The notes under the pieces were generated by a model. It ran no database searches. It was given only the letters and a program-made list of their open reading frames with translations, and was not told the DNA's origin. A DNA stretch of 64,000 nt. Source: Escherichia coli (GTDB lineage Bacteria > Pseudomonadota > Gammaproteobacteria > Enterobacterales > Enterobacteriaceae). Position 1 is the stretch's first letter. Every line of letters starts with the position of its first letter. The DNA is taken from NCBI RefSeq assembly GCF_029227855.1, contig NZ_CP074356.1; one strand, written 5' to 3'. The translations under genes and the position numbers were made by a program. Shown piece by piece: positions 2,137-46,525 of the stretch.

Positions 2137-4362
2137 ATGCGGTGGATCCTGTTCATCCTCTTCTGCCTGCTGGGCGCACCTGCCCACGCGGTATCCATAC
2201 CCGGCGTTACAACCACAACGACAACGGACTCAACGACTGAACCGGCCCCGGAACCGGATATCGAACAAAAAAAAGCGGCCTATGGCGCACTGGCGGATGT
2301 GCTGGATAATGACACCTCGCGTAAAGAGTTGATCGACCAGTTGCGCACCGTCGCCGCTACGCCCCCTGCGGAACCGGTACCAAAGATCGTGCCGCCGACG
2401 CTGGTTGAAGAGCAAACCGTGCTGCAAAAGGTCACCGAAGTCAGCCGCCATTATGGTGAAGCCCTTTCCGCCCGCTTCGGGCAACTTTATCGCAATATCA
2501 CCGGCTCCCCGCATAAGCCGTTTAATCCACAAACCTTCAGCAATGCGCTGACCCATTTTTCAATGTTAGCGGTATTAGTGTTTGGTTTTTACTGGCTGAT
2601 TCGCCTGTGCGCACTTCCGCTGTATCGCAAAATGGGCCAGTGGGCGCGGCAAAAAAATCGTGAGCGCAGTAACTGGCTGCAGCTTCCGGCGATGATTATC
2701 GGGGCGTTTATTATCGACCTGCTGTTACTGGCACTGACATTATTTGTCGGTCAGGTTTTAAGCGACAACCTGAATGCGGGCAGTCGCACCATCGCTTTCC
2801 AACAAAGTTTGTTTCTCAACGCCTTTGCCCTGATTGAATTTTTCAAAGCTGTACTACGCCTGATTTTTTGCCCAAACGTGGCGGAACTGCGCCCGTTCAC
2901 GATTCATGACGAGACCGCCCGTTACTGGAGCCGTCGCCTGAGCTGGTTAAGCAGCCTGATTGGCTATGGCCTGATTGTCGCCGTGCCGATTATCTCTAAT
3001 CAGGTGAATGTACAGATAGGTGCGCTGGCGAACGTCATCATTATGCTGTGCATGACCGTCTGGGCGTTGTACCTGATCTTTCGTAATAAAAAAGAGATTA
3101 CCCAGCATTTGCTCAACTTCGCGGAGCATTCGCTGGCCTTTTTCAGCCTGTTTATCCGCGCCTTTGCGCTGGTGTGGCACTGGCTGGCAAGTGCCTATTT
3201 TATCGTGCTGTTTTTCTTTTCGTTGTTCGATCCGGGCAACAGCCTGAAATTTATGATGGGTGCAACGGTGCGCAGCCTGGCGATTATTGGTATCGCAGCA
3301 TTTGTTTCCGGTATGTTTTCCCGCTGGCTGGCGAAAACCATCACCCTCTCGCCACATACTCAGCGTAACTATCCGGAGCTGCAAAAACGGTTGAATGGCT
3401 GGCTGTCGGCGGCGCTGAAAACGGCGCGTATTCTGACAGTCTGCGTGGCGGTAATGCTGCTGTTGAGCGCATGGGGATTGTTCGATTTCTGGAACTGGCT
3501 GCAAAACGGTGCGGGGCAGAAAACCGTAGATATCCTGATCCGTATCGCACTCATTCTTTTCTTCTCGGCGGTTGGCTGGACAGTGCTCGCCAGTTTGATC
3601 GAAAACCGGCTGGCTTCGGATATTCATGGCCGCCCGCTACCCAGCGCCCGTACGCGTACCCTGCTGACGCTGTTTCGTAACGCGCTGGCGGTGATTATCA
3701 GTACCATCACCATCATGATTGTGTTGTCGGAAATCGGCGTTAATATCGCGCCATTGCTGGCAGGTGCCGGGGCATTAGGTCTGGCTATCTCTTTTGGTTC
3801 GCAAACGCTGGTGAAAGATATTATCACCGGGGTATTTATTCAGTTTGAAAACGGCATGAACACTGGAGATTTGGTTACTATCGGGCCGTTGACCGGTACT
3901 GTGGAACGGATGTCGATTCGCTCCGTGGGCGTGCGTCAGGATACCGGGGCGTATCACATCATTCCGTGGTCTTCGATAACTACCTTTGCTAACTTCGTCC
4001 GCGGCATTGGTTCGGTGGTGGCAAATTACGATGTTGATCGCCATGAAGATGCTGATAAAGCCAATCAGGCACTGAAAGATGCGGTAGCTGAATTGATGGA
4101 AAACGAAGAAATTCGCGGGTTGATTATCGGTGAACCGAACTTTGCCGGGATTGTCGGCTTAAGCAATACCGCATTTACACTGCGTGTTTCGTTCACCACG
4201 CTGCCACTCAAACAGTGGACGGTCCGCTTTGCCCTCGACAGCCAGGTGAAAAAACATTTCGACCTGGCGGGTGTTCGCGCGCCTGTACAGACTTATCAGG
4301 TGCTGCCTGCTCGGGGCGCGGCCCCGGCTGAACCGCTGCCGCCGGGGGAGCCAACGCTTTAA
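2137..4362 (+). CDS. ybiO: MscS-family mechanosensitive channel
   Basis: 750-aa ORF; internal ATG at 2137 preceded by GGAGGA gives the 741-aa YbiO ([18 protein letters not shown] signal-like N-terminus); conserved MscS core in the C-terminal part. Confidence 0.9.
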
Positions 4363-5285: not shown

Positions 5286-5560
5286 AGCATTCTCCTTTAA
5301 GCAGCGGCGTAAGATACCCGCATAACGCGACAGGGTAAATATCTGGCTGCGTTTATCATTTCTAAAAACCTTAACATGGCTATGGTTTATGGCAATTCAT
5401 CATAAAAATCAGCATCATGCATGTCATTGATTTGTCTTATTTTGTAAAAATATATCGTTCAAAAAATAAGCGTATCTCTGTCAATTTTTTGCGTCATTTT
5501 CATCGCCCAGGCGACCTACACTTATCAGGCACTACCCGTTGTATTTATGAGGATGTCATT

Positions 5561-41310: not shown

Positions 41311-41338
41311 GGCGCTATATTTCATAGCGCCTTTTTTT
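41311..41338 (+). terminator. Intrinsic terminator after ybhC
   Basis: ggcgctatatttcatagcgcc hairpin followed by seven T; preceded by a second hairpin aacccgatagtctgaaccatcgggtt. Confidence 0.6.
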
Positions 41339-43598
41339 ACATCTGACGGTTTTTATTGAAATTAATCAAACTACCCGCCTTGATAATCTCGCGCTCTTCA
41401 GCAGTCAGACTTTCCATATAGAGCGTAATCTCTGTTACCGGCGCATCTTCATGGATCACATAACCTTTAAACGTCGTACCCGGATTATCCAGCGCCGCTT
41501 TAATGCCAGGGATGTAAATGTAATCCCCCACTTCAAACGTTGGTGCTTCCGCCATTTGCAGCGGTAACATCCCCCAGTTGATGACGTTAGAACGGTAGCG
41601 TTTAGTCGCGTATTCCTCGGCAATATTCGCCAGACCGCCAATCACACGCTGGCAGCTCGCCGCCTGCTCACGCGCAGAACCATCGCCTGGTTTCACCGCA
41701 TAGACCATGCTGCCAATTTCAGTTTGCAGCGGATCAATATGCTCCTGACCAGCAATCTGCTTAATGCGCGCAAACACCTCTGTCAGCTCGCTGACATTCC
41801 CCGCCAGACGCTGATTTTCCAGCTCGGCAGTCGCTTTACTTCTGCCAACATAACCTGGATCGCGGCGTGACAGGGTAAACTCCGCCAGACCAATCGGATT
41901 TGAACGATAAGAAGATGTTTCACCGGAAGGAATCAGTTCGTCGGTGGTGGTGACTTCGTCGAGGATCTTCGAGCACACTTTGAGGACGATATTGTCAGTC
42001 AGCGCACCCAATTCCGGCCAGTCTTTAATGTTCGGTCCGTAAATCAGCGGTTGCTGGGTCGCCCCTTTCACAAAGCCCTGATAAACACGGTTTTTATACG
42101 GCGTTACATCGAAGGCGTACTCCGGCACGTTGTCCCAGCAATCGAGTTCGCTGGCAGAAGTTAAATAGCCACCGTTTGCCGCAGTCGCAGCGATAGAACG
42201 AGCGTCCATCAACGCCACCGCTGACATCTGCCCATTAGCTGGCTTAGAGCCTTCGCGGTTCGGGAAGTTACGCGTAGTGTGGCGAATACTTAAACCGTTG
42301 TTGATTGGCGTATCGCCCGCGCCAAAGCATGGGCCGCAGAACGCGGTTCTGATGATTGCGCCTGCGCCAATCAAATCTGCTACCACACCTTTTTTGGCGA
42401 GATCCATAAACACCGGCTGTGATGACGGGTAAACCGCCAGCGAGAAGGTGTCATTGCCACAGGATTGACCGCGCAGTGCATTCGCCGCCGCGATGACGTT
42501 TTCGTAGTTACCGCCAGAACAGCCCGCGATAATCCCCTGCTGCACTTTCAGGCGACCATTTTCCACTTTATCCAGCAGCGAGAGTTTGGCTTTACCGTGC
42601 GCCACGCGTTCGGACTCAATTTCAATCTCACGCAGAATGTCGGTCAGGTTCTGGTTCAGTGTGTCGATTTCATACACGTTGCTCGGGTGGAACGGCAGCG
42701 CAATCATTGGTTTGATAGCGCTTAAATCAACGCTGATGCAGCCATCGTAGTACGCCATCGGTTGAGGGTTAAGCTGGCAGTAATCCTGGCCGCGACCGTG
42801 CAGCGCCAGCCAGTTATGGACTTCTTCATCGGTTTGCCAGACAGAACTTAAACAGGTCGTTTCAGTGGTCATAACGTCAACGCTGTTACGGAAATCGGTA
42901 GAGAGCGCAGCAACACCGGGACCTACGAATTCCATCACTTTGTTTTTGACGTAGCCGTTTTTGAACACCGCGCCGATAATCGCCAGCGCCACATCCTGCG
43001 GACCCACATACGGAGCAGGTTTTCCGGTCAGATGCACCGCAACCACGTCCGGATAGTCGATATCCCATGTGTCATTAAGCAGTTGTTTTACCAGCTCGCC
43101 GCCGCCCTCACCGACTGCCATTGTCCCTAATGCACCGTAACGGGTGTGGCTGTCTGACCCGAGGATCATTTTGCCGCCGCCTGCCATCATTTCACGCATA
43201 TATTGATGGATAACCGCAATATGCGGAGGCACAAAAATACCGCCATAACGCTGCGCTGCCGATAAGCCAAAAATATGGTCATCACCGTTAATGGTGCCGC
43301 CGACGGCGCAGAGTGAGTTATGGCAGTTGGTCAGCACATACGGCAGCGGGAAACGTTCCATACCCGACGCTTTAGCGGTCTGTACAATACCAACAAAGGT
43401 AATATCGTGAGAGGCTAATGAATCAAACTTAATTTTAAGTTTATCCATATTTCCGGACGTATTATGAGAAGAGAGAATAGACCAGGCAATAGTGCCTTTT
43501 TTTGCTTCTTCTTTTTTAATTTCGCCGGTGAAATGTTCTTCGGCAATTATTTCGTTATTACTGGCGAGAAACACGCCTTTTTCAGATAACTTGATCAT
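41337..43598 (-). CDS. ybhJ: Aconitase-family protein
   Basis: Internal ATG at 43598 gives 753 aa ([18 protein letters not shown]…); aconitase-like domains. Confidence 0.88.
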
Positions 43599-43660
43599 CA
43601 AATGCTCCAGATATCTGCGCACCGAGAAGTGCGCAGAAAGATAATAAATGGATATACTCT

Positions 43661-43780
43661 AAATAATTCGAGTTGCAGGAAGGCGACAATCGAGTGAATC
43701 CCCAGGAGCTTACATAAGTAAGTGACTGGGGTGAGCGAACGCAGACGCAGCACATGCAACTTGAAGTATGACGAGTATAT
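43661..43780. repeat. ERIC (enterobacterial repetitive intergenic consensus) element
   Basis: Contains the ERIC core gtgaatccccaggagcttacataagtaagtgactggggtgagcg (both standard ERIC primer sites) between the ybhI stop and the ybhJ start. Confidence 0.75.
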
Positions 43781-45214
43781 TTACAGCATGTTCCAGCCGA
43801 TCAGCATATTCCACCACCACACGCCAAGGGTGATATGCACCAGGAAGGTTAATATCGTCAGTACCGCACCGACCAACCACCAGGATTTAATATCGTTATA
43901 ACCCACGCCAAAGATGACCGGACCTGCCGCGCCGCCATAGTGAGTAACCATGCCGCCATAGGAGTTGGAGAACAACAGTGCCAGCGCGGTTAACATTAAC
44001 GGTGCGCCGGAGACGTTCGCCAGCATGGCAAATACCGGTAACATGGCAACGATATAGGCACTACCGGAAGCGAAGAAATAACGCACGATAATGCTGAGGA
44101 AAATAATAACGAAGAAAGCAACGTTACCGTGACCATCAAATGCCAGGTTATTTTTAAAGACTTCAGCTAACCATTCGAAGAATTTAACTTTCGATAATAA
44201 GGAGCTTAAGCCGATAATACCGCCGTACCAGATTAAGGTATTCCAGCCGCCTTTATTTTTAACCACGTCTTCCCAGGTAACGATACCCAGCAGCAGCATA
44301 GTCGCCATAACAACGATTGCCACGGTGGATTCATCAACCCCCAGTGACTTACTGAAAATCCAGCCCAGCAGCGCCAGCACGAAGACACCGAGCAGCATTT
44401 TTTCGCGGATTTTCATCGGTCCCAGTTCGGCAAGGCCCGCTTTGGCGATGGTTTTGTTATCCACCTTCTTAATTTCTGGCGGATACATGGTGTAAATCAC
44501 CAGCGGGGTGACCAGCAGCATAATGATACCCGGCAATCCGGCTGCCAGCGCCCATCCACCCCAGCTAATTTGCAGGTGCAGAATGTCGTTGATCATTTTC
44601 AGCGCCAGAATGTTCCCCGCCATTGCGGTAAAGAACATATAGCTGGTGGTTTTGGTGACCATGTAAATGGACATCATCAGGTAATGTCCGACACGACGCG
44701 GACTTTTTTCCGGTTCTGACCCCAAAGCCACCGCCACGCTGTTGATGATCGGTAACACAATGCCGCCCGCACGCGCGGTGTTAGACGGTGTTGCCGGAGC
44801 CAGTACCAGATCGAGGAATACCGTAACGTAACCCAGACCCAGCGTGGTGTTACCGATTTTACCAATCAGCAGATAGGCAATACGTTTACCTAAGCCGGTG
44901 GTCACAAATGCGGCGCTTAAGGTAAACGCGGAGAACACCAGCCAGGTGGTACCTGAAGAGTAACCGCTTAATACGGCGGTGGTCTTAAACGCACCGTCGG
45001 ATAAGTTACCGACCACCACCATGGAGGCAGCAACGGCAATTAACAGTACGACAGGTTCCGGGAAAGGCTTGATAACCAGCCCCACAATGGCCGCCAGGTA
45101 AATACCAAAAAGCACCCACGCCAGTTCGCTTAATCCTGCCGGAGCTGGCATAAAGCCAATAATACATGGGATCGCTAATATCAGAATTAGCTTCCATAAC
45201 GATTTTTTATTCAT
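43781..45214 (-). CDS. ybhI: DASS-family (divalent anion:Na+ symporter) transporter
   Basis: 477-aa polytopic membrane ORF matching YbhI. Confidence 0.9.
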   Translation of the reverse strand: MNKKSLWKLILILAIPCIIGFMPAPAGLSELAWVLFGIYLAAIVGLVIKPFPEPVVLLIAVAASMVVVGNLSDGAFKTTAVLSGYSSGTTWLVFSAFTLSAAFVTTGLGKRIAYLLIGKIGNTTLGLGYVTVFLDLVLAPATPSNTARAGGIVLPIINSVAVALGSEPEKSPRRVGHYLMMSIYMVTKTTSYMFFTAMAGNILALKMINDILHLQISWGGWALAAGLPGIIMLLVTPLVIYTMYPPEIKKVDNKTIAKAGLAELGPMKIREKMLLGVFVLALLGWIFSKSLGVDESTVAIVVMATMLLLGIVTWEDVVKNKGGWNTLIWYGGIIGLSSLLSKVKFFEWLAEVFKNNLAFDGHGNVAFFVIIFLSIIVRYFFASGSAYIVAMLPVFAMLANVSGAPLMLTALALLFSNSYGGMVTHYGGAAGPVIFGVGYNDIKSWWLVGAVLTILTFLVHITLGVWWWNMLIGWNML

Positions 45215-45289: not shown

Positions 45290-46342
45290 TCAGGGAAGAA
45301 AAACTTCACCGGAAAATATTTTTCTGGTTGTCCGAATAACAGATGCGCGTAACGTCGTGGCATCCTGACCTTCATTACTTAAATGAACGTCGAGCGCACC
45401 ACTGGGGTGTTCAATATTGATATTGCCGTATCCTATAGAAGAGACGATTTGTCGGGTGACGGTGCCTTCCAATGCACAACTACTGGAAATGGCAATAGCA
45501 CCGGTTATCGCCAGCGCGCGATGGCAAGAATGCGGCATAAAATAACGCACATTAATTGCTCCGCCTTTCTGCGCTGGAGAAATAAGCACAGGTTTAGGGA
45601 TAACCATATTACTGACATCGCCTAAGCCCATTGCTTTACCCGCTTGTAGACGGATAGATTCAATGCGAGCTAATAATGCTTTGTCGGCATCCAGTTCCGT
45701 CGGTAATTCATAGCCTGTTTTTCCCAGATATTCAGCAGGAATAATGACAACTGGCATCGCCATATCGATACAGGTCACCGGGACATCGTCAAAATAATCA
45801 ATCTGATTATCCGTCGGGAAGACTTTTCCGGTTTTGGTTCCGGCGGCATTCAGGAAAGTGAGCGCAACCGGTGCGGCAGTACCCGGTACGCCGTCAATTC
45901 TGGCGCTACCCTCGTACTCGACAACACCATTTGGCGTTTGCACATCAGCTTCGATGAACGTACCCGTATTGACGTTGCGGATACGTACGCGGGTAACTGG
46001 CGAAGTCGCTGCAATCAAACCATTTTCAATGGCGAATGCCCCAACGCCAGACAGCATATTGCCGCAGTTAGGCGTGGTATCGACACGTTGCTCATGGACG
46101 ATAACTTGAGCAAACAGATAATCGACATCAGCACGCGGATCGCTGGAACGGCTAATAATGGCGACTTTACTGGTCAGCGGATTACCGCCGCCAATACCGT
46201 CAATTTCCAGATCGTTACCGGAACCCATAATTGCCATCAATATTTTATCGCGCTGCGTTTGATCTTCGGGTAGATGTTCCGCTAACAGGAACGCGCCCCT
46301 CGAGGTTCCACCTCGCATCATCACGCAGGGTATTTTTTTCAT
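45290..46342 (-). CDS. ybhH: PrpF/AcnD-accessory-family isomerase
   Basis: 350-aa ORF matching YbhH. Confidence 0.9.
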   Translation of the reverse strand: MKKIPCVMMRGGTSRGAFLLAEHLPEDQTQRDKILMAIMGSGNDLEIDGIGGGNPLTSKVAIISRSSDPRADVDYLFAQVIVHEQRVDTTPNCGNMLSGVGAFAIENGLIAATSPVTRVRIRNVNTGTFIEADVQTPNGVVEYEGSARIDGVPGTAAPVALTFLNAAGTKTGKVFPTDNQIDYFDDVPVTCIDMAMPVVIIPAEYLGKTGYELPTELDADKALLARIESIRLQAGKAMGLGDVSNMVIPKPVLISPAQKGGAINVRYFMPHSCHRALAITGAIAISSSCALEGTVTRQIVSSIGYGNINIEHPSGALDVHLSNEGQDATTLRASVIRTTRKIFSGEVFLP

Positions 46343-46525
46343 AATAATGCCCTCAATTTAAAAACATAACTTATTGCGATATGGTTACATTAAGGGCAAA
46401 GCATCTCTAATGACTTTAGCTCAACGATTAATAACATTTTTTCATTAATTTAAGTTAGCTAAATGCAGTTAGAATTTTTAACGGCCAGTCACCCAAAATC
46501 GACGCTTCCATTTTCCGGAGTAATA

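Follow-up and report, generated by a model that had tools for sequence, protein, structure and literature searches.

The ERIC family of dispersed repeats (also designated IRU or RU-1) was described in 1990-91, and a paper of 1991 and one by Wilson and Sharp (2006) are cited for it in three later articles (PMC2759123, PMC2229807, PMC3184786). Two reference sequences, the Salmonella element SeRU-1 and a 127-nt Escherichia coli consensus, were subsequently tabulated (Delihas 2007, PMC2759123, Table 1a), and members of the family were noted to possess 5'-TA-3' termini and to be accompanied by duplication of a TA target (PMC2229807, Table 1; PMC3184786).

In 2005, an analysis of such elements in Yersinia (De Gregorio et al. 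2005), as recounted in two reviews (PMC2229807, PMC3184786), reported that ERICs are co-transcribed with their flanking genes, and that when an element is inserted in one particular orientation the upstream transcript accumulates to a lower level than the downstream one. The explanation given for this behavior in those reviews was a conformational change, induced by a ribosome, that exposes an RNase E site within the ERIC; that model is also the basis for the role in RNase E cleavage that is proposed below for the 3' arm of the E. coli element.

While REP/BIME elements and the Correia/NEMIS repeats of Neisseria resemble ERICs in being palindromic repeats, found in intercistronic regions and 3' untranslated regions, that are co-transcribed with their neighbors and alter the stability of individual mRNA segments, they are unrelated to ERIC in sequence. 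The REPs are GC-rich palindromes of approximately 35 bp that are mobilised by RAYT transposases, and the Correia elements are substrates of RNase III that possess inverted repeats of 24-26 bp.

An ERIC element between ybhI and ybhJ

Within the 64-kb stretch of E. coli DNA that was analysed (hereafter 'the window'), a full-length element of 127 bp occupies positions 43653-43779 on the minus strand, and it can be regarded as essentially certain that this element is an ERIC, a non-autonomous miniature inverted-repeat element. An initial annotation of the region had proposed a near-consensus ERIC, had noted both of the standard primer-site cores, and had named poor alignment to the consensus as the observation that would count against the assignment. 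The minus strand was found to align without gaps, from end to end, to Salmonella SeRU-1 (118 of 127 positions identical, or 93%) and to match the E. coli consensus in 115 of 130 alignment columns (88%), such that identity of 88-93% extends over all 127 nt. The central 44-nt core (GTGAATCCCCAGGAGCTTACATAAGTAAGTGACTGGGGTGAGCG), which corresponds to the tip of the predicted hairpin, is present in a single copy in the window (43694-43737, plus strand) with no mismatches, and was matched in none of 100 shuffled sequences; it is composed of exact matches to primer ERIC1R (43694-43715, minus strand) and primer ERIC2 (43716-43737, plus strand), the sequences of which were checked against PMC3696847. 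The location given at the outset, 43661-43780, was correct as to the locus but not as to the ends, one of which had been placed 8 nt inside the element and the other 1 nt beyond it.

The element also displays the terminal inverted repeats of the family, detected as arms of 26 nt at 43652-43677 and 43755-43780 that are 81% complementary. As annotated within the element itself, and in the sense of the mRNA, the 5' terminal inverted repeat spans 43754-43779 (minus strand) and starts 1 nt beyond the stop codon of ybhI, while the 3' terminal inverted repeat spans 43653-43678 (minus strand) and contains the AU-rich segment GAAUUAUUUAG (43659-43669). When the ybhI-ybhJ copy was used as a query (E <= 1e-5), the number of matching sites in each E. 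coli genome had a median of 11 (range 2-21), as is typical of a dispersed, multi-copy repeat. Thus the length, the core, the identity to the consensus, the terminal inverted repeats, the TA termini and duplication, and the copy number all correspond to those of the ERIC (IRU/RU-1) family, as do the intergenic position within a same-strand gene pair and the predicted hairpin RNA, and no difference of substance from that family was found. The copy groups with those E. coli elements that resemble Salmonella SeRU-1 more closely than they do the consensus published for E. coli, and two E. coli paralogs (described below) differ from it at only 2-3 positions. It is an ordinary member of a known family, at a site that is already occupied in the K-12 reference.

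A survey of Rfam returned no ERIC family, and the only relevant match was a sub-threshold one to V_AS5 (RF02818), a Vibrio antisense RNA (AS5), with a score of 49.7 bits against a gathering threshold of 96 and an E value of 2.8e-10. That match extends end to end across the 129-position model, including its outer stems and core, and lies on the plus strand, antisense to the ybhIJ message; V_AS5 is a Vibrio-specific family. By sequence comparison, the ybhI-ybhJ ERIC is homologous to transcribed, ERIC-like Vibrio repeats, but by the Rfam threshold it is not a member of V_AS5 itself. Weak matches to isrH and mir-1421 were dismissed as noise.

The genes that surround the element were also as originally described, namely a DASS transporter gene and an aconitase-family gene, both on the minus strand, with the ERIC situated between the stop codon of the former and the start of the latter: ybhI (43781-45214) matches Pfam Na_sulph_symp, and ybhJ (41337-43598), when read from the ATG start used in K-12, encodes an aconitase-family protein of 753 amino acids. 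Upstream of them on the same strand is ybhH (45290-46342), of the PrpF family, followed by the divergent LysR-type gene ybhD, which starts at 46463. The spacer between ybhI and ybhJ is 182 nt in length, as it is in the K-12 reference (K-12 positions 803321-803502), and is composed (in mRNA sense) of the ybhI TAA stop codon (43781-43783, minus strand, as assigned from the sequence and gene call), a single A, the 127-nt ERIC, a 15-nt AU-rich linker, a stem-loop, 5 nt, the ybhJ Shine-Dalgarno sequence GGAG, 6 nt, and the ybhJ ATG. The ERIC therefore begins 1 nt after the TAA and ends 54 nt before the ybhJ start codon.

The AU-rich linker (UCCAUUUAUUAUCUU, 43638-43652, minus strand), which joins the ERIC to the small hairpin, is unpaired in a predicted fold of 241 nt, and its alignment to the empty E. 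coli site described below, and to species that lack the ERIC, identifies it as part of the pre-insertion spacer. The stem-loop that follows (43614-43637, minus strand; predicted -17 kcal/mol, z -5.3) contains a GC-rich stem of 10 bp, with arms perfect at 9 of 9 positions, and is separated by 5 nt from the Shine-Dalgarno sequence of ybhJ that follows it. A hairpin of different sequence is found at the equivalent position in three Citrobacter species, in Edwardsiella and in Intestinirhabdus, and comparison of these spacers indicates that the stem-loop is an ancestral feature, separate from the ERIC. The ybhJ initiation region (43596-43608, minus strand), which was assigned from the K-12 start and from alignment, contains GGAG at 43605-43608 and ATG at 43596-43598, both of which are invariant across eight aligned sequences.

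A motif scan of 43599-43780 revealed no sigma-70-like promoter and no intrinsic-terminator-like site on either strand; because the spacer is devoid of such sites, and because ybhI and ybhJ reside on one strand, it is probable that ybhH, ybhI and ybhJ form a single message in which the ERIC is co-transcribed. An alternative arrangement, in which the ERIC separates two transcription units, either by terminating or attenuating transcription of ybhHI or by supplying a promoter for ybhJ, could draw upon the moderately U-rich stretch CCAUUUAUUAUCUUU that follows the hairpin in the mRNA sense, upon the treatment of ybhHI as a cluster (with ybhJ mentioned apart) in PMC9068703, and upon the existence in Clostridia of ybhJ homologues that are not neighbored by ybhH or ybhI. 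That arrangement is nevertheless very improbable, given the result of the motif scan, the AU-rich character of the base of the ERIC stem (which is unlike that of intrinsic terminators), and the short, operon-typical spacers (only approximately 57-75 nt) of relatives that lack the element. The study just cited, in which ybhD was deleted, contains no ybhJ expression values in its text or supplement.

The spacer can also be read as coding sequence, with translation of a small open reading frame coupling ybhJ initiation to translation upstream. Such a frame does exist: 53 codons at 43598-43759 (minus strand), in the frame of ybhI, with a TTG start and a TGA stop that overlaps the ybhJ ATG (as TGATG); furthermore, ERICs have been noted to contain open frames, in some cases fused to genes (Delihas, PMC2759123). 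Translation of this frame is scarcely credible, however, when it is considered that it possesses no ATG, that its TTG is located inside a stable stem, that ybhJ has a GGAG Shine-Dalgarno sequence of its own, that the frame's 18 non-ERIC codons would remain open by chance approximately 40% of the time (an estimate), and that the frame is missing from both the empty E. coli allele described below and the species that lack the ERIC. The open frame through the ERIC was judged to be a chance occurrence.

Filled and empty sites, and the age of the insertion

The presence or absence of the element across E. coli, a check that had been recommended when the region was first annotated, was established by searches of 5,426 complete genomes. 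The locus was found in approximately 5,320-5,370 of them, with filled spacing in every sampled case; among 39 sampled full-length matches, all 39 displayed the 831-nt spacing of a filled site, with one of these also containing an IS1. Queries that correspond to the filled locus, or to the locus with the ERIC deleted, are blunt instruments for the detection of empty sites, since an empty site still covers more than 80% of either query. A 92-nt query that spans only the hypothetical empty junction was therefore employed (E <= 1e-15), and it identified a single empty site among the 5,426 genomes, in GF4-3, a strain of Gambian guinea-fowl origin. Public metagenome contigs yielded 55 filled junctions and no empty ones. 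The element is near-universal in E. coli at this location, where it is effectively fixed and no longer moving.

The spacer of GF4-3 is 57 nt in length, and its junction (TAAATATCC) reads TAAATA|TCC, as compared to TAAA-TATAC...GTATA-TCC in filled alleles. A TA is thereby seen at both ends of the ERIC when the filled site (TAAA-TA-TACTCG...GAGTA-TA-TCC) is aligned to the empty one (TAAA-TA-TCC), which is the footprint expected of an insertion that duplicated a TA dinucleotide.

That the GF4-3 site might represent the ancestral, never-occupied state was considered and ruled out. Its flanking haplotype is that of an ordinary E. coli, nested within the diversity of the species near the ERIC-bearing strain LHM10-1 (with which it shares most of its SNPs), and E. 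albertii contains the ERIC. These comparisons indicate that GF4-3 carries either a secondary, precise loss of the element or a short imported segment. Two substitutions are unique to the empty site, one at a distance of 3 nt from the junction and the other at 6 nt. Because GF4-3 is viable in its absence, the element is dispensable.

Beyond E. coli, the ERIC is found at the identical junction in E. albertii, and it is absent from Citrobacter youngae, C. gillenii, Citrobacter sp. FP75, Edwardsiella hoshinae and Intestinirhabdus alba, all of which retain the gene order ybhD-ybhH-ybhI-ybhJ and possess spacers of 57-200 nt. This distribution places the insertion before the split of E. coli from E. 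albertii and after the split of their lineage from those genera. The ERIC accordingly inserted at a TA dinucleotide, one base past the ybhI stop codon, prior to the divergence of the two Escherichia species.

Four metagenome contigs (L088, L114, L128 and L129) were found to cease to match ybhIJ on the far side of the ERIC. For three of these (L088, L114 and L129) the switch occurs exactly at the ERIC boundary, and rearrangement was rejected in favor of assembly chimeras formed across repeat copies; in L128 the switch occurs approximately 17 nt beyond the ERIC.

Sequence constraint on the element and its paralogs

The ERIC at ybhI-ybhJ is under strong sequence constraint. Between E. albertii and the majority E. 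coli sequence there is not one difference in 127 positions (the window's own allele displays a single difference), whereas four-fold degenerate sites differ between the same species at 36 of 105 sites in ybhI and 36 of 97 in ybhJ (34-37%), and codon positions 1 and 2 of the flanking genes differ at 1.5-2%. The corresponding binomial probability is approximately 1e-18 to 1e-20, and that of observing one difference or fewer at a neutral rate of 0.30 is approximately 1e-18. The same pattern extends to two other divergent lineages, with 1 difference in 127 in a contig that is approximately 17% divergent at four-fold sites (L116), and 2 in 127 in another contig that resembles E. albertii (L090). 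Nucleotide diversity (pi) within E. coli is 0.013 in the ERIC, against 0.059-0.126 at four-fold sites. The part of the spacer outside the ERIC is also conserved, with 3 differences in 54 positions.

Two E. coli paralogs, located in the pgk-fbaA and yeiS-preT spacers and both recovered by way of chimeric metagenome contigs, differ from the ybhI-ybhJ element at no more than 2-3 positions out of 127, and such near-identity implies that the conservation is a property of the family rather than of this locus. The dinucleotide at 43690/43691 adopts the same variable states among ybhI-ybhJ alleles as it does among the paralogs. Hulton and colleagues, in 1991, are said to have characterised ERICs as strongly conserved in their sequence but variable in location, and the 93% identity of the present element to the Salmonella copy is consistent with that description. 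Both paralogs are located at least 61 nt from the upstream stop codon, in the orientation opposite to that of local transcription. De Gregorio and colleagues, in 2005, reportedly found that ERICs that adjoin or overlap stop codons are preferentially in the destabilising orientation, and the distance and opposite orientation of the two paralogs would match such a rule.

A rival view is that the ERIC is an inert relic, which is co-transcribed without measurable effect upon ybhI or ybhJ and which owes its conservation to a process that acts on the whole family, such as gene conversion together with selection. The near-identity of the paralogs leaves no signature that is specific to the locus; the states of the 43690/43691 dinucleotide are common to alleles and paralogs; one wild strain, GF4-3, precisely lacks the element; and no compensatory changes were found in its predicted stem (see below). 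All of these points are as that view would have it. On the other hand, the theory of multigene families holds that unbiased gene conversion by itself leaves the long-term rate of substitution undiminished. Since gene conversion alone cannot explain the missing interspecies divergence, the contrast between 0 of 127 differences and a neutral divergence of approximately 35% still demands purifying selection somewhere in the family. Moreover, a loss allele seen in one of approximately 5,300 genomes and in none of 55 metagenome junctions is a poor fit to a sequence that is neutral and freely losable, and loss is rare despite the direct repeats that flank the ERIC and a hairpin structure that renders it prone to deletion. 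We therefore consider an inert relic to be possible, but on balance rather unlikely.

A more far-reaching reading is that this copy, together with its near-identical paralogs, is subject to purifying selection at the level of individual nucleotides that is at least as tight as that which acts on the amino-acid-determining positions of the neighboring genes. That proposal seems unlikely to be correct. If true, it would point to a sequence-specific function that extends beyond the hairpin, of which recognition by a protein or RNA that acts in trans would be one example and a ribosome-gated switch, in which the 3' arm, once freed, pairs anew with the region of ybhJ initiation, would be another; the GF4-3 deletion allele would make such a function directly testable.

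A possible role in the stability of the ybhHIJ message

The RNA of the ERIC is predicted to form a long, imperfect hairpin, with a folding energy of -41.7 kcal/mol as compared to -24.1 +/- 3.1 kcal/mol for shuffled sequences (z -5.65), and with a stem of approximately 40 base pairs that is broken by many internal loops. In a fold of 241 nt, this hairpin and the small stem-loop upstream of ybhJ are predicted to form independently of one another. When pairing was forbidden at the ybhI stop codon and the adjoining 12-15 nt, in imitation of a terminating ribosome, the outer stems were lost and the predicted energy rose from -60.8 to -52.8 kcal/mol (a difference of 8 kcal/mol), with the freed 3' arm displaying a weak alternative pairing with the region in which ybhJ translation starts. 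No compensatory base-pair changes were found in a set of 52 natural E. coli sequences, and the polymorphisms of the element include several changes that break pairs (among them those at 43776 and 43669), so that the variation does not single out the fold, rather than the sequence, as the target of selection.

The remark with which the element was first annotated, that ERICs within operons give rise to structured RNA with possible effects on mRNA stability or on the coupling of adjacent genes, is a fair account of the Yersinia work as treated in PMC2229807 and PMC3184786, and we infer from that analogy that an effect of this type may also operate at ybhI-ybhJ. The locus resembles, in particular, the stop-proximal 'B-oriented' ERICs of Yersinia enterocolitica: it is oriented in the same direction as its flanking genes, it lies 1 nt from the upstream stop codon, and it places its AU-rich arm 3' in the mRNA. 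It differs from them in species and operon, and its assignment to the 'B orientation' is indirect, by way of the two reviews (PMC2229807, PMC3184786) and of the orientation of other ERICs.

The orientation of the element also coincides with that of ERICs that overlap the 3' ends of genes in Erwinia (PMC2759123). That orientation, as printed in Table 1a of the same article, corresponds to the minus strand of the window and thus to the sense of the ybhI and ybhJ mRNA. Translation of the mRNA in one frame (TAT ACT CGT CAT ACT TCA AGT TGC ATG TGC) yields the peptide YTRHTSSCMC, which has been reported as the C-terminus of Erwinia ECA0168, the product of a gene with an ERIC overlapping its 3' end (PMC2759123). 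In abutting the ybhI stop, in displaying the orientation of the 3'-end elements of PMC2759123, and in positioning an AU-rich arm downstream, the locus would appear to fit the Yersinia pattern.

By analogy with that pattern, we tentatively propose, as a plausible reading that we hold with less than even confidence, that the hairpin determines how stable the ybhHI and ybhJ segments of the message are with respect to one another, through the combined action of the ribosome and RNase E. Because the 5' arm begins 1 nt after the stop codon, a ribosome that terminates translation of ybhI would cover that arm of the hairpin. The 3' arm and the linker next to it, both AU-rich, would thereby be freed, and RNase E would then cleave within the exposed AU-rich region, for which GAAUUAUUUAG would be a candidate entry site when unpaired. 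The upstream ybhHI piece would subsequently be degraded from its new 3' end, and the downstream ybhJ piece would start just before the conserved 10-bp hairpin, which may possibly serve a protective function. The broader explanation that best accommodates the observations, in which an ancient insertion at a TA dinucleotide gave rise to a co-transcribed hairpin that tunes the two halves of the message, is one to which we would assign roughly even chances.

The hairpin might act instead without involvement of the ribosome, either as a barrier to 3'-to-5' exonucleases that stabilises ybhHI, in the manner of a REP, or as a substrate for RNase III, in the manner of a Correia/NEMIS element. A long and stable stem-loop (approximately 40 bp, with the energy and z-score given above), located directly 3' of ybhI, is what such a mechanism would employ, and reviews report that transcripts of miniature inverted-repeat elements can regulate mRNA stability, including Neisseria elements that are substrates of RNase III (PMC2229807). 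The ERIC data recounted in PMC3184786 describe destabilised upstream transcripts, however, and a dependence upon orientation that is not expected of a symmetric duplex barrier; the stem, moreover, is interrupted by its many internal loops. A role as a barrier or RNase III substrate is, in our estimation, distinctly improbable.

With respect to the spacer itself, relatives that lack the ERIC already possess an AU-rich spacer and a small hairpin. The arrangement required for segmental decay of the message may thus predate the ERIC and not depend upon it.

The element carries little weight as a discovery, given that the ERIC family was already familiar by 1990-91 and that the K-12 reference contains a copy at the same site. 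The locus does represent a clean and dated ERIC insertion, defined by its TA duplication, by a precise empty allele, by its presence in E. albertii and by its absence from Citrobacter and Edwardsiella, and the dated insertion, the single loss allele and the extreme conservation are mildly noteworthy outcomes. Strain GF4-3 constitutes a natural, scarless knockout, which would allow the RNase E model developed for stop-proximal ERICs in Yersinia to be tested on ybhHIJ in E. coli. The near absence of change within the ERIC, over a period during which one third of neutral sites have changed, sharpens the long-standing question of what function, if any, these elements perform in E. coli.

Variation within the ERIC copy, its near-identical paralogs and the empty allele

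Sequence variation within the ERIC copy that separates ybhI from ybhJ (window 43653-43779) is concentrated in a single hypervariable dinucleotide, at window positions 43690-43691, while the remainder of the element is almost invariant. Read in the sense of the mRNA, this dinucleotide occurs at the site as GA, GC, AC, TC or GT, and the GA allele carried by the window was a singleton among the sampled sequences. The same dinucleotide reads TC and AC, respectively, in two paralogous ERIC copies elsewhere in E. coli, one in the pgk-fbaA spacer (positions 375-501 of comparison locus L139) and the other in the yeiS-preT spacer (approximately 379-505 of locus L140). Over their 127 positions these paralogs show only 2-3 differences from the copy between ybhI and ybhJ, and both lie in the opposite orientation to it relative to local transcription. 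Both are also distant from the upstream stop codon; the pgk-fbaA copy begins 61 nt past pgk and ends 26 nt ahead of the fbaA start.

Three metagenome contigs (L088, L114 and L129) carry ybhI and the ERIC followed by the flank of pgk or yeiS, with the change falling exactly at the 3' boundary of the element. These contigs are most likely assembly chimeras, formed across near-identical repeats in low-coverage assemblies, and rearrangements should be inferred from such contigs only with caution.

The only allele precisely lacking the ERIC in a set of 5,426 complete E. coli genomes was that of strain GF4-3 (NZ_CP053258.1; locus L083, 2992-3048). The haplotype surrounding that empty site is that of an ordinary E. 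coli, which indicates that the loss of the element there was secondary. Two substitutions unique to GF4-3, at distances of 3 and 6 nt from the empty junction (equivalent to window positions 43646 and 43649), hint at either repair-associated change or the import of a very short patch.

Structure and reading frames of the ybhI-ybhJ spacer

In both E. coli and E. albertii, the Shine-Dalgarno sequence of ybhJ is preceded, at a distance of a few nucleotides, by a stable 10-bp stem-loop (window 43614-43637, minus strand; -17 kcal/mol). All five of the relatives that lack the ERIC (three Citrobacter, Edwardsiella and Intestinirhabdus; loci L003-L007, approximately 3940-3990) possess a hairpin of different sequence at the same relative position, which points to an ancestral feature of the spacer that is conserved in structure. 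The hairpin could act as a stabiliser of the ybhJ 5' end or as a processing signal.

Blocking the ERIC's 5' arm in silico released the AU-rich 3' arm, which was then predicted to pair weakly, through low-energy AU pairs only, with the Shine-Dalgarno and start region of ybhJ (43590-43680, minus strand). The freed arm might possibly serve, in such a model, as a switch coupling the termination of ybhI to the initiation of ybhJ. The ybhI frame also remains open past its TAA through the entire ERIC and spacer, and the TGA that closes it overlaps the ATG of ybhJ (TGATG); it contains a TTG-initiated ORF of 53 codons (window 43598-43759, minus strand). Open frames are a known feature of ERICs, so this one is probably the product of chance.

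Within ybhI itself, a match to Ysr283, an Rfam family of Yersinia antisense sRNAs, spans the full length of the model on the plus strand, antisense to the gene (window 44498-44749; E = 2e-8), with a score of 39.1 bits that falls below the gathering score of 58. It probably reflects only the origin of that family in sequence antisense to a ybhI homologue of Yersinia.

Probable disruption, divergence and proposed origin of ybhJ

In E. coli TUM9812 (locus L141, 608-1383), an IS1A element flanked by a target duplication, CAAATGCT, separates the Shine-Dalgarno sequence of ybhJ from the ATG (equivalent to window positions of approximately 43599-43606), and probably abolishes translation of the gene; in addition, ybhI is annotated as a pseudogene in that strain. 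Elsewhere, patches of unusually high divergence among E. coli occur at approximately 43000-43200 within ybhJ, where K-12 and the window differ at 15-21 positions per 200 nt. Two metagenome contigs (L095 and L101) match K-12 across ybhI, the ERIC and the spacer, and are approximately 33% divergent deeper in ybhJ, from about 43421 downstream. These divergent stretches could represent recombinant imports or assembly problems.

Among loci L002-L081, relatives of YbhJ (window 41337-43598) are present in six species of enterobacteria (E. albertii, three Citrobacter, Intestinirhabdus alba and Edwardsiella hoshinae); beyond these, the nearest that were found show 67-74% amino-acid identity and belong to Lachnospiraceae and other Clostridia. 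The clostridial genes are not adjoined by homologues of ybhH or ybhI, and this distribution suggests a horizontal exchange of ybhJ between gut Firmicutes and enterobacteria, the gene having become associated with ybhHI as a secondary event.
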